Source of the DNA: an uncultured Clostridium sp.
GTDB taxonomy: Bacteria > Bacillota > Clostridia > TANB77 > CAG-508
NCBI GenBank assembly: GCA_930987745.1
Contig: CAKNKX010000003.1
Coordinates: 23,149-87,148 of the forward strand
Direction: 5' to 3'
DNA: 64,000 bases
In this document: in pieces, positions 21,490-24,056 of the stretch
How the letters are laid out: each line of letters starts with the position of its first letter
Position numbering within the stretch: position 1 is the stretch's first letter
The notes under the pieces: generated by a model
Database searches by the model: none
The model's input: the letters and a program-made list of their open reading frames with translations, nothing else
Told to the model about the DNA's origin: nothing
Position numbers and translations under genes: made by a program

Positions 21490-21615
21490 CTTAATATTAG
21501 AGCGTGGCACGAAAACCAGTGTTGTTATAGTTGTTATTAGGATTGTTGTAATTGCGATAGGCGACAGGATAATTGTTTCCATTATTGTTGTAATTGCCAC
21601 CGCGAATAACACGAT
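21490..21615 (-). repeat. DGR template repeat (TR), Asn-codon (AAY) rich, located 115 nt downstream of the RT stop
   Basis: Aligns base for base with 23130-23254. Read in the VR frame it encodes RVIRGGNYNNNGNNYPVAYRNYNNPNNNYNNTGFRATL. Confidence 0.9.
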
Positions 21616-21730
21616 ACGAATGCCTTTTTAAAGTCTATCCCTCTATATAAAACATACTTTTTCTTAAATTATAAGAATCTGCATGTTTAACATAGCCTAG
21701 CCAACCTGCTATACTTCTTTGTATCTCAGG

Positions 21731-22648
21731 TTATGTTATTTTGCCTTCTTTCAATTGTCTTGTATATCTTTTTAATTTTCTTTTCATTCTACATTTACTT
21801 GTATGCCTTATTTTTAGTCTTTTCTCATTGATTTTATAACCACAAAAATTAACCCCTTGTATATCTTTAAAAATTCTTGTTTTTGAGTTTAAAGTTAATT
21901 TTAAATTTTCTTTTAAAAATTTAGTTATATTATTTAAACTATCTTTTGCAATTTCTTTATTTTCGCACATTATAACCATATCATCCATATATCTGTAATA
22001 ATATCTGCATTTTAATTTGTGTTTAACATATTGATCTAATTCATTTAAATATATATTAGCAAACATTTGAGATGTATAATTACCTAAAGGAAGTCCTACC
22101 ATGCCTTCTGTAGATAATAAAATTTCTCTAGTTAACCATAGTAACTTTTTATCCTTCATTTTTCTTTTTAATATTTCCCAAAGTATTCTTTTGTCTATAT
22201 TTTGAAAATACTTTGTAACATCCATTTTTAATATGTAATAATTCTTCCATTTAGATTTTGCACTTCTCATTGCTTTTTGAACATCTTTAGACGCTTTATG
22301 CATTCCTCTTCCTTCTATTCCAGCATATGATGTACTAATAAATTGTGGTACAAAGTATGGCTTTATAAATTTTTCGACATACCACCTATGTATTACTCTA
22401 TCCTTATATTCTGATGCCATAATTATTCTTTCTTTTGGCTCATATATTTTAAATTTTGTGTAACCACCATGTTTGTATGTACCATTTTTTAATTGTTTCT
22501 CTAATTCTAATAATTCTTGTTCTAGTTTTAACTCAAACAATATTATTTTTTTCTTTTCTCTTTTTCCACATCTTGCTTTTTTATGTGCTTTTAGTAAATT
22601 TTCAAACGATACTGAATTATCATATATATTTTTAATTGTTTTAGGCAT
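21731..22648 (-). CDS. Diversity-generating retroelement reverse transcriptase
   Basis: GLPLGNYTSQMFANIYLNELD (the DGR-specific [IL]GxxxSQ motif), YYRYMDDMVIM (YxDD) and ILKMDVTKYFQNID. 305 aa. Overlaps the avd stop by 8 nt. Confidence 0.9.
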   Translation of the reverse strand: MPKTIKNIYDNSVSFENLLKAHKKARCGKREKKKIILFELKLEQELLELEKQLKNGTYKHGGYTKFKIYEPKERIIMASEYKDRVIHRWYVEKFIKPYFVPQFISTSYAGIEGRGMHKASKDVQKAMRSAKSKWKNYYILKMDVTKYFQNIDKRILWEILKRKMKDKKLLWLTREILLSTEGMVGLPLGNYTSQMFANIYLNELDQYVKHKLKCRYYYRYMDDMVIMCENKEIAKDSLNNITKFLKENLKLTLNSKTRIFKDIQGVNFCGYKINEKRLKIRHTSKCRMKRKLKRYTRQLKEGKIT

Positions 22649-23009
22649 ATTTATTCACCTCTAGAGATTTAATAAGTCCTCCTAAAATTTTTCCAATTTC
22701 AGCTAGTAACTCGTTGCTATGTTTGTATTTCTTTTCATCTATCCATTTTTGTTTATACATCATTCTTATACAAATTCTTTGATAATATATATTACTATCA
22801 ACAATGTTATATATTGATAATCTTTTATTATTATCTATTTTACTTGCTAAAAGAATATTCTTCATCATTTCATACATACTTGTTTTTACTTCTGTTCCTA
22901 TACTAAATTTTTCTGTTCTTGGAAGTTTAAGTAATATTGTAAGCATATATTCAATATATTTTTCTATTTTCACTATTATTACAAATCTGTTATCTTTGCT
23001 TTTCTCCAT
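22641..23009 (-). CDS. avd: DGR accessory variability determinant (Avd; four-helix-bundle protein)
   Basis: LPRTEKFSIGTEVKTSMYEMM ... LLAEIGKILGGLIKSL matches the Avd / 23S-IVS four-helix-bundle family. Start placed at ATG 23009 (AGGAG SD) rather than 23069, which would read through the hairpin. Confidence 0.8.
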   Translation of the reverse strand: MEKSKDNRFVIIVKIEKYIEYMLTILLKLPRTEKFSIGTEVKTSMYEMMKNILLASKIDNNKRLSIYNIVDSNIYYQRICIRMMYKQKWIDEKKYKHSNELLAEIGKILGGLIKSLEVNKYA

Positions 23010-23048
23010 CTTTATATCAACTCCTATTAAAAAATATATAAAAAAGAA

Positions 23049-23079
23049 GGAGGAACTCTGAAATTTCAAAGTTCTCTCC
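23049..23079 (-). other. Imperfect hairpin 48 nt downstream of the VR/target stop codon (terminator and/or DGR target-recognition hairpin)
   Basis: GGAGAGAACTTTGAAA / TTTCAGAGTTCCTCC on the coding strand, followed by a T-rich tract. Confidence 0.5.
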
Positions 23080-23126
23080 CTCTGTCTGTGCTTGGATACA
23101 ATTAAAGAATTTTACAGTGGTCAGTG

Positions 23127-24056
23127 CTACTTAATATAAAGCGTGGCACGAAAACCAGTGAAGCTATATTTGCCATAAGGATAGAGGTAACCGCGATAGG
23201 CGACAGGAGAATAGTCCCCATTATCGTTGTAATTGCCACCGCGAAGAACACGATGTGAACTTTTGTGCTGTTCTTGTGTCCATTCATCCACATTTCCTGT
23301 AAAGTCGTAGATGTTATTAGCACACCATTCTTCTCTGCTTCCTGTTTCAACTGCTTTCTTCGGAGAATTCTCTGTGTTCCAATGATTGCCCCATTCAGTA
23401 GAGTCCTCTGCAATTTCAGCAAGAGTTTTAACTTCCGTTTTGATAAACCATTCCAATACCGAATCATATTCTGCACCAAAAGTCAGATGACTCTTAACTG
23501 CTTCATTATCTTCGATAGTAGATACAACCTTCTTGGCATCATCAAAATTGATGTTTACCCACGGCATAACTCCTTTTACCGACTGCGGTTTTCCTTCTGA
23601 ACTTTTGGAAATGTTATAACGAGAAATATAAAATCCCCCATATTTTTTGACACTTTCAAGTTGTTCAAGCAGTTCACCATTTAAAGCTTCATTGAATTCA
23701 TCAGCCGAAAATTCATCGTTCATGTAATTTCGTCTGCCGAATTTCTCCGAAAAATGTTCTCCATCAAGTGTTCCATTAGAGTCGAGACTTCCAACAGGAA
23801 TCCATACAAACTGGCTTCTATCAGAACATCTTTCAATTACAAATCCATTATTCCATTCTCCACAGACATGCTTATATCCTTCAGGAATTGGAGGATTTAC
23901 ATAGTTAGGAATTGGAGGATTTACATAGTTTGTAGAGTTGACATTGGCTGTAGCAATGTTCAGAGCTCTGATAATTAACTCTCCTCTTGTTCCCTCTGAG
24001 ACTTCAAAGGTTATACCCTTTTCTGCCTCAAGCACAAATTTTTCATACCGTTTCAT
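23127..24056 (-). CDS. DGR target protein with a C-terminal FGE-sulfatase / C-type-lectin-fold variable domain
   Basis: ..GNVDEWTQEQ...HRVLRGGNYNDNGDYSPVAYRGYLYPYGKYSFTGFRATLYIK. The VR occupies the last ~40 codons. AAGGAGG SD before ATG 24056. Much more CG-rich than the host genes. Confidence 0.85.
   Translation of the reverse strand: MKRYEKFVLEAEKGITFEVSEGTRGELIIRALNIATANVNSTNYVNPPIPNYVNPPIPEGYKHVCGEWNNGFVIERCSDRSQFVWIPVGSLDSNGTLDGEHFSEKFGRRNYMNDEFSADEFNEALNGELLEQLESVKKYGGFYISRYNISKSSEGKPQSVKGVMPWVNINFDDAKKVVSTIEDNEAVKSHLTFGAEYDSVLEWFIKTEVKTLAEIAEDSTEWGNHWNTENSPKKAVETGSREEWCANNIYDFTGNVDEWTQEQHKSSHRVLRGGNYNDNGDYSPVAYRGYLYPYGKYSFTGFRATLYIK
23130..23254 (-). repeat. DGR variable repeat (VR) at the 3-prime end of the target gene, including the invariant GC-rich IMH end
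   Basis: In the 115-bp core (23140-23254 vs 21501-21615) there are 18 mismatches. 17 fall where the TR coding strand has A; one is C to A. The 3-prime 21 bp, CACTGGTTTTCGTGCCACGCT, are identical. Confidence 0.9.

Follow-up and report, generated by a model that had tools for sequence, protein, structure and literature searches.

A diversity-generating retroelement with a truncated reverse transcriptase and an RT-14 RNA on a putative mobilizable island of a gut Clostridium

Can a diversity-generating retroelement (DGR) that displays nearly all of its recognizable parts still rewrite its target gene? The question is raised by a 64,000-nt stretch of DNA from an uncultured Clostridium sp. (CAG-508; GCA_930987745.1, contig CAKNKX010000003.1, positions 23,149 to 87,148 of the forward strand), referred to here as the window. 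On the minus strand at positions 21490-24056, open reading frames (ORFs) and repeat alignment place a target gene with its variable repeat (VR), avd, a reverse transcriptase (RT) gene, and a template repeat (TR), in that order. An earlier note, made from the sequence alone, had called this cassette a complete DGR. That description fails at the RT, which carries a nonsense codon (L306*), and at the VR, which does not differ among independent assemblies of the lineage. The analysis supports, with good confidence, a genuine DGR of architecture B2 with an RT-14 RNA, carried on an integrative mobilizable element (IME) of about 10.2 kb, in a copy that was recently inactivated and whose VR is now frozen. 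The DGR itself is ordinary, having a known architecture, a known target fold, and a known adenine bias. What the locus adds is RT-14 as a proposed equivalent of the Sp RNA of Bordetella phage BPP-1, with two putative helices that bracket the TR, together with the fold of the target, the element, and its site in murA.

The repeat pair, the premature stop codon, and the constant VR

The TR occupies 21501..21621 (-), comprising a 115-nt core (21501-21615) and a 6-nt 5' extension known from relatives, and contains 14 AAY codons. Its core, read from 21615 to 21501, aligns without gaps over 115 nt to the VR core (23140..23254 (-), read from 23254 to 23140), with 18 mismatches. Adenines of the TR are the site of 17 of these (A>G 8, A>T 6, A>C 3) although the TR has only 38 A in 115 nt (hypergeometric p = 4.7e-9), and this recount agrees with the figures in the earlier note. 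The sole non-adenine mismatch in the core is a C>A change (TR 21530, VR 23169) that converts AAC to AAA. The final 21 nt of the core show no TR/VR difference, and both this identity and the peptides quoted earlier, RVIRGGNYNNNGNNYPVAYRNYNNPNNNYNNTGFRAT for the TR and RVLRGGNYNDNGDYSPVAYRGYLYPYGKYSFTGFRATL for the VR, were recovered. In relatives, TR/VR homology begins 6 nt further 5', at TTCGTAT; the window VR has TTCACAT in this extension, which adds two non-adenine mismatches.

Beyond the shared CACGCT, the 3' flanks differ. The VR continues into TTATATTAAGTAG (23127..23139 (-)), a segment like the initiation of mutagenic homing (IMH) site that takes in the target stop codon, and the TR continues into CTAATATTAAGTCAG. 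The diverged ends described in the earlier note are real and recur, as the same contrast, in all 11 related TR/VR pairs. They fit the IMH/IMH* distinction, with a putative function in directionality. A search for further VRs, proposed earlier for the rest of the genome, was run on the 64-kb window by matching the non-adenine positions of the TR, and the known VR was the sole match there.

Related loci, given L numbers here, come from metagenome contigs and metagenome-assembled genomes (MAGs). In each of 11 relatives that have both repeats the VR is a different one, and its 11 to 22 mismatches fall nearly all at TR adenines; by these repeat comparisons the DGR family is clearly active. An ordinary duplication of a gene fragment followed by random substitutions, which had been named beforehand as an outcome that would refute a DGR, accounts for the bare existence of a repeat and nothing more. 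The adenine bias in the window and in the 11 independent relatives rules it out, Avd, RT, and RT-14 adjoin the repeats, and the chance that such a duplication explains them is practically nil.

The gene for Avd (122 amino acids [aa]; 22641..23009 (-); Pfam bAvd, 5.3e-20) overlaps with its end the start of the RT frame (21635..22648 (-); RVT_1, 2e-18), which has 337 codons in relatives. As stated in the earlier note, the RT has both the DGR-specific LGNYTSQ, which follows the motif-4 pattern xGxxxSQ of the DGR clade, and YMDD. Its best match in the Protein Data Bank (PDB) is bRT (8ub7_A of entry 8ub7), aligned over the full length with E = 2.5e-45. Two metagenome contigs have avd and RT called as one fused ORF (...SLEGRNMPKT...; P0001 and P0002, 457 aa, L003:771-2144).

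In the window the RT frame is broken by a premature stop: codon 306 (21731..21733 (-)) is TAA in place of the TTA (Leu) of relatives. The translation reads ...QLKEGKIT*PEIQRSIAGWLGYVKHADSYNLRKSMFYIEG, with 31 more codons past the TAA before a TAG at 21637-21635. The L306 change (TTA>TAA) costs the enzyme 32 C-terminal residues and leaves a 305-aa product, so that the stop at codon 306 of 337 deprives the cassette of the intact, potentially functional RT gene expected of a DGR. Codon 306 in 42 related loci is TTA in 38, CTG in two, TTG in one, and TAT in one, and is never TAA. Among the closest homologues, drawn from a database of 5.8 billion proteins and with most of those listed 337 aa long, residue 306 is Leu in each of the 12 aligned to the window RT, and the 31 residues that follow are nearly invariant even at 76% overall identity. 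In the alignment with bRT, the lost segment corresponds to residues ~294-328, where the thumb ends. In the bRT-Avd-RNA complex solved by cryo-electron microscopy (cryo-EM), the thumb touches the template:primer duplex and is ringed by the "Thumb Ring" of Sp (bioRxiv 10.1101/2023.10.23.563531).

A premature stop in a metagenome assembly might be a sequencing or assembly error in an otherwise complete cassette, and other broken genes in the window (ftsA, the C-terminal part of murA, and a spoIIGA-like gene) at first suggested that this assembly was error prone. The same TAA is present, however, in independent metagenome assemblies from other samples and projects, as are the split ftsA and the truncated murA. 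Error was rejected as the source of the TAA on the grounds that independent assemblies carry all these lesions, and its probability is very small. For the same reason, the broken ftsA, murA C-terminal part, and spoIIGA-like gene are features of the lineage and not assembly noise. A single additional C ahead of GGAGGAG (...IPL c GGDNITNDIA...) shifts the frame of ftsA near 12005 and divides the gene into two ORFs (window 11438-12695 (-)), whose products of 236 and 185 aa are called alike in independent assemblies. The frameshift in murA is likewise an extra C before GGAG, with the same 256-aa truncated call in four independent assemblies. The Peptidase_U4 (SpoIIGA-like) gene (window 9249-10146 (-)) consists of two overlapping ORFs both here and in independent contigs. 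With the RT, four genes are disrupted within 64 kb, which hints at gene decay in the lineage.

The same assemblies bear on the VR as well. Several metagenome projects have yielded the exact 309-aa target protein, this VR included, on at least 23 contigs (36 index blocks), and the RT on those contigs is called as 305 aa. Samples with the TAA allele include ERZ28573988 and ERZ28573932. One contig (L067) equals the window over 8,930 nt without differences and has the same TAA, VR, and TR. Another (L068) differs over the same 8.9-kb span at 19 sites and two gaps, with TAA, VR, and TR unchanged. Compared at the level of assemblies, the VR is identical in L067, L068, and L069. A locus from a sister sample (L070; ERZ27234806), ~97% identical to the window over target, avd, and RT, has TTA at codon 306 and a VR that differs from that of the window; 16 of the 18 differences between the L070 VR and the window TR fall at adenines. 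In these consensus assemblies, therefore, no ongoing diversification of the VR was seen in the window lineage. Because the RT is truncated and the VR is identical in independent assemblies, this copy has most likely been inactivated recently.

Alternatively, the DGR could still be active in this genome, through readthrough of the TAA, residual activity of the truncated RT, or a second RT acting in trans. The intact avd, TR, RT-14, IMH, and target ORF would permit this, and action in trans of avd-TR-RT has been documented for BPP-1 (Wu et al. 2018, PMC5758913). Against it, the 32 missing residues belong to the thumb and hardly vary within the clade, the VR stays the same on at least 23 contigs and between strains with 19 differences elsewhere, and no second RT, avd, or RT-14 was found in the 64-kb window. 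Continued activity is therefore considered unlikely. The window also contains no tRNA genes, and thus offers neither a tRNA integration site nor a suppressor tRNA.

Recent inactivation would place this copy among others that have been damaged. Since the RT is disrupted in 8 of 34 relatives with full RT coverage, decay of this DGR cassette is therefore common. RT frameshifts were noted in six related genes, at about three positions, along with one stop at codon 206 (L028-L033, L012); either RT disruption is recurrent in the family, or K-rich genes are error prone in assemblies. The locus offers a clean natural example of DGR decay, in which one RT nonsense codon accompanies a VR that is constant across independent samples, and the 97%-identical sister element, with an intact RT and a different VR, supplies the contrast.

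RT-14 and pairing with the flanks of the TR

The earlier account of the cassette included no structured RNA and had overlooked RT-14 directly 3' of the TR. The match to this Rfam family (RF02921; 21344..21502 (-)) starts at the TR 3' end, scores 83.1 bits against a gathering score of 48.1, and covers the full model (1-144). A closing hairpin (21391-21343) is followed by a U-run. The 160 nt 3' of the TR are more conserved than the TR, even where the TRs of relatives have diverged, and RT-14 lies directly after the TR in all 12 clade relatives tested, including two at merely 48% RT identity. The families RT-1 to RT-19 were described as orphan motifs near RT genes, with RT-10 located between the TR and brt in BPP-1 (Weinberg et al. 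2017, PMC5737381).

Two candidate pairings connect this RNA to the ends of the TR. The first, P1 of the Rfam consensus structure, joins CUAAUAU in the IMH*-like TR flank (21494..21500 (-)) to GUAUUAG at 21447..21453 (-), the proposed primer strand. A U.G pair in P1 becomes C-G in L040 and L046. The first unpaired base 5' of P1, U21501, is also the last base common to TR and VR. The second, helix A, is a 12-bp long-range helix predicted by RNAalifold from 13 loci, each represented by the RT 3' end, the TR, and RT-14. Its 5' strand AGGGAUAGACUU (21631..21642 (-)) takes in the stop codon of the RT and lies immediately 5' of the TR, and its 3' strand AAGUCUAUUCCU (21425..21436 (-)) is in the centre of RT-14, in a part that is unpaired in the Rfam model.

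In helix A, 99.4% of cells in the alignment are paired, and sliding the partner by 1 to 3 columns as a control lowers pairing to ~50%. Covariation was found at two pairs, G-C to A-U in five sequences and A-U to G-C in one, and TAG/TAA variants of the RT stop codon covary with C/U in the helix A partner. Synonymous-codon diversity at invariant residues is 0.20 in the last 32 RT codons versus 0.61 elsewhere, and this reduction at the RT end indicates constraint at the RNA level. A further candidate, in which UAUUAAAGG of RT-14 would pair with CUUUAAA upstream of the TR, lacked covariation and was rejected.

From these alignments, the TR would be bracketed by two duplexes with the downstream RNA, and RT-14 is proposed, by analogy, to be an Sp-equivalent RNA. 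The arrangement mirrors the avd:Sp and TR:Sp duplexes of BPP-1, seen by cryo-EM (bioRxiv 10.1101/2023.10.23.563531). An orphan Rfam family that starts at the TR 3' end and pairs with both TR flanks would in this way acquire a role, lending support to a general RNA scaffold and to other RT-n motifs as DGR spacer RNAs. In a distant DGR (L044, a Tissierellaceae MAG with 35% RT identity), Rfam RT-17 was found immediately upstream of the RT (L044:9900-9988), which fits the idea that further orphan RT-n motifs act as spacer RNAs of DGRs.

The anatomy of the family and the BPP-1 model together suggest how such a DGR would operate. A single transcript would carry avd, RT, TR, and RT-14, and RT-14 would fold back onto both TR flanks, with helix A tying 21642-21631 (the RT stop-codon region) to 21436-21425 and P1 tying 21500-21494 to 21453-21447, so as to make U21501 the first templated base. 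RT-Avd would then reverse transcribe the TR, misincorporating at adenines, and the resulting cDNA would take the place of the VR. The expected outcome is the rewriting of ~14 AAY codons on the ligand-binding face of a 309-aa C-lectin protein of the formylglycine-generating enzyme (FGE) type that has no export signal. In the window copy, an RT truncated by the TAA and missing the end of its thumb would leave a VR that no longer changes.

The position of the TR downstream of the RT, which the earlier note had regarded as less usual, proved to be the norm for this clade. The order avd-RT-TR is architecture B2 (Wu et al. 2018, PMC5758913), and the TR lies ~20 nt past the RT stop codon in every relative of the RT clade. 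Published B2 DGRs (PMC5758913) share the same core with an adjacent upstream target, leaving no architectural difference; the RT-14 assignment and the IME context are additions from this clade. BPP-1 (mtd-avd-TR-brt) is similar in having Avd and a DGR-clade RT (bRT, alignable with the window RT along its full length), A-specific transfer from TR to VR, a C-terminal VR in a C-lectin-fold protein, a 3' contrast of the IMH/IMH* type, and an RNA downstream of the TR that pairs with the TR 3' end and with a segment upstream of the TR. It differs in its order, avd-TR-RT, whereas here avd-RT-TR makes the RT 3' end, and not the avd 3' end, the upstream pairing partner. The Sp of BPP-1 belongs to Rfam RT-10 and the RNA here to RT-14. 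The BPP-1 target is the tip of a phage tail fibre and the carrier is a phage, in contrast to a small FGE-type protein without a signal on a mobilizable island, and the RT is truncated here.

The target protein

The target gene (23127..24056 (-)) encodes 309 aa, with a 50-aa N-terminal segment followed by an FGE-sulfatase/C-type-lectin-fold domain and the VR at the C terminus. Between target and avd lies a terminator-like hairpin (23053..23074 (-)), a consensus match from a pattern scan. The Pfam FGE-sulfatase match is below threshold for the window protein and was found in 29 of 30 family members. A search for relatives, which returned 3,631 among 1.84 billion cluster representatives, identified residues ~50-309 as one homology unit. 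Alignment of 33 homologues showed 85-90% conservation over the body of the protein, with variation clustered at codons for which the TR has AAY; the VR-region consensus is RVIRGGxYxxxGxxYPVAYRxYxxPxxxYxxTGFRATLYIK.

The earlier note had anticipated a C-type-lectin/FGE fold, and structure prediction yielded an FGE-type C-lectin fold. With a diverse 49-sequence alignment, AlphaFold2 gave a model with a predicted local distance difference test score (pLDDT) of 93 and a predicted template modelling score (pTM) of 0.84; a shallow alignment of 85-90%-identical homologues gave a pLDDT of 34. Foldseek comparison of the model with the PDB returned PvdO, TvpA (2y3c), TaqVP (5vf4), formylglycine-generating enzymes, PorK, EgtB, and Mtd, with probability 1.0 and template modelling scores of 0.4-0.5. 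A profile search of the PDB matched SUMF2 (2.4e-5) and TvpA (2.5e-4), and single-sequence phmmer of the target against the PDB found no match. The predicted model thereby confirmed the fold.

Among known DGR variable proteins, Treponema denticola TvpA and Thermus aquaticus TaqVP belong to the same FGE-type C-lectin fold class. They are top Foldseek and profile matches, and share a C-terminal ...RGG...GFR motif that frames the VR. TvpA, however, is a lipoprotein, whereas the target here has no export signal, and identity is merely ~15%. The TvpA DGR also has an HRDC accessory gene, which places it in architecture C (PMC5758913).

The absence of an evident signal peptide, described as unusual in the earlier note, held up: no signal peptide, transmembrane segment, or hydrophobic segment was detected in the target, whose maximum 15-aa hydropathy is 0.97. 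This is atypical because most cellular DGR targets have a transmembrane segment or signal peptide (Roux et al. 2021, PMC8144416). One speculative and rather unlikely reading is that the target is a cytoplasmic, portable hypervariable receptor, for example for proteins of phages or rival elements. If so, DGR variation would serve the immunity of the element or its host and not surface adhesion; a protein matching PDC-S13, a candidate defence family, lies on the same island. PADLOC and PHROGs returned nothing informative for the target or for the neighbouring DUF6076 protein.

Several smaller features of the target gene were recorded. Its GC content is 38.8% (GC content at third codon positions [GC3], 0.30), compared with 24.6% for the RT (GC3, 0.16) and 26.9% for the window. 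An offset of ~9-19 points (12-15 in most) is present in all relatives, different target subfamilies included, so the offset is a conserved property and not a sign of recent transfer. An exact 24-nt tandem duplication (NYVNPPIP twice; window 23883-23930 (-)) lies in a low-confidence linker; this rare duplication is shared by L070, and homologues have other in-frame duplications in the same N-terminal region. Three giant proteins, P0241 (6477 aa), P0259 (5309 aa), and P0271 (3424 aa), contain the N-terminal two thirds of the target's FGE-like domain in 18-20 tandem copies.

The carrier element and its site in murA

The DGR is part of an element of ~10.2 kb located between the two halves of murA in a gut Clostridia bacterium of 27% GC. 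Its genes are a Rep-like gene, a MobV relaxase, two small ORFs, the DGR, DUF6076, Bro-N, and a large serine recombinase. The Rep-like gene (26123..26668 (-)) encodes an HTH_36/DnaD-like protein resembling replication initiators (Pfam; PHROG replication initiation families, best 3e-15), and the relaxase is of the MobV family (24680..25867 (-); Mob_Pre, 4.6e-45). On the other side of the DGR, the DUF6076 gene (20182..21342 (+); Pfam, 7.7e-16) is convergent with it and is its neighbour in close relatives. The Bro-N protein (18542..19420 (-)) is candidate defence cargo, matching PADLOC PDC-S13 over its full length (1.8e-110) and phrog_15286 (4e-100). The recombinase (16664..18340 (-); Resolvase, Recombinase, and Zn_ribbon_recom domains) sits at the end of the element; its ORF has 558 aa, and the version on record uses a 547-aa start.

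Insertion splits murA at the codons for its active-site motif PGGCDIG, which in an uninterrupted murA (L035) reads ...SYPGGCDIGTRPIDLH. The N-terminal fragment (118 aa; 26841..27197 (-)) is host DNA that stops at ...TYPGDCDI* in the attL-side core CCAGGGGATTGCGATATTTGA (26841..26861 (-)); it was recognized as EPSP_synthase in the identical contig L067, and between hosts carrying the element its aa identity is only 64-73%. The C-terminal part (15762..16672 (-)), also host DNA, restarts at GGCDIGTRP... in the attR-side core ACAGGAGGTTGTGACATAGGA (16657..16677 (-)), which contains the recombinase stop codon. The 20-nt att cores at 26861-26841 and 16677-16657 are imperfect, with a G-run indel between them. 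The additional frameshift in the C-terminal part, near 16035, suggests an insertion of some age, since the split gene has had time to decay.

The same element was found in murA of six other MAG species (L005, L012, L004, L013, L015, and L001). Shared junctions place it at the same site in L005, L012, L013, L015, and L001, and for L004 the assignment is to murA only. Identity is 84-100% for element proteins, with most at 90% or more, but only 53-77% for host MurA. Because the same Mob-Rep-DGR module is paired in other relatives with a different serine recombinase (27-36% identity), the integration module is exchangeable. A 10-kb MobV/serine-recombinase island, inserting at conserved murA active-site codons, would carry a DGR whose target lacks a signal from one species of gut Clostridia to another.

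As the earlier note had recognized, the carrier is a small serine-recombinase/MobV element and not a prophage. It has relaxase and recombinase domains and no phage structural genes. A degraded prophage or phage satellite was weighed as its origin. Large serine recombinases are common in prophages, and the Bro-N and Rep-like proteins match PHROG families. Neither capsid, tail, terminase, nor lysis genes were found in the 10.2 kb, however, and the MobV relaxase is full length; megablast of the whole element gave no match in PLSDB plasmids or in 50,697 INPHARED phage records; and the compact Mob-Rep-DGR-recombinase layout is kept across hosts. A phage origin is accordingly judged quite improbable. 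No mating-pore or coupling genes of type IV secretion systems were detected when all listed ORFs of at least 50 aa in the 10.2 kb were scanned with Pfam, and two short ORFs with PHROGs. On its gene content the carrier is best described as an IME, with putative crossover point, oriT, excision, and mobilization by a helper.

IMEs of Firmicutes are small; they have one terminal integrase and one relaxase, lack mating-pore genes, and insert into a conserved gene. Those with a MobV relaxase and a serine recombinase have the layout of the window element. Their cargo is a resistance or metabolic gene, whereas here it is a DGR, and here murA is split at the catalytic-cysteine codons without being restored. 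The closest published precedent is that of Bacteroides DGRs on functional integrative and conjugative elements (ICEs) (bioRxiv 10.1101/2024.11.15.621889). In both cases a cellular, non-phage target is diversified and horizontal spread involves an integrative element related to conjugation. The Bacteroides elements are large self-transmissible ICEs with type V pilus adhesins as targets, in contrast to the 10-kb non-autonomous MobV/serine-recombinase element of Clostridia with its signal-less target.

Several points weigh against the reading of this locus as a B2 DGR with RT-14 on an IME, recently inactivated and with a frozen VR. The constancy of the VR rests on consensus assemblies, which may all derive from one recently spread strain. 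Leftover activity of the 305-aa RT, rare TAA readthrough, or complementation by another DGR RT is conceivable. Covariation in helix A involves two columns and probably few independent events, and P1 is nearly invariant across the loci examined. At 0.41-0.48, the Foldseek template modelling scores of the target are modest. For the element, the crossover of recombination, oriT, excision, and transfer are putative, and no second host murA was seen.

Some further observations concern the element. In the gene-poor stretch between Bro-N and DUF6076, a sub-threshold match to the Rfam pemK RNA (27.8 versus 34.8 bits) was found at window 19787-19863 (-); the corresponding position in L001 is occupied by a DUF4258/MqsA-like pair. 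In L035 (L035:3464-7037), an intact murA is immediately preceded by a partial or complete right part of the element (RT, TR, RT-14, and Bro-N or DUF6076). A similar right-hand part precedes the N-terminal part of murA and attL in L039 (L039:57-3842), and neither locus has a recombinase in between. This arrangement could be a second insertion site, a tandem, or a misassembly.

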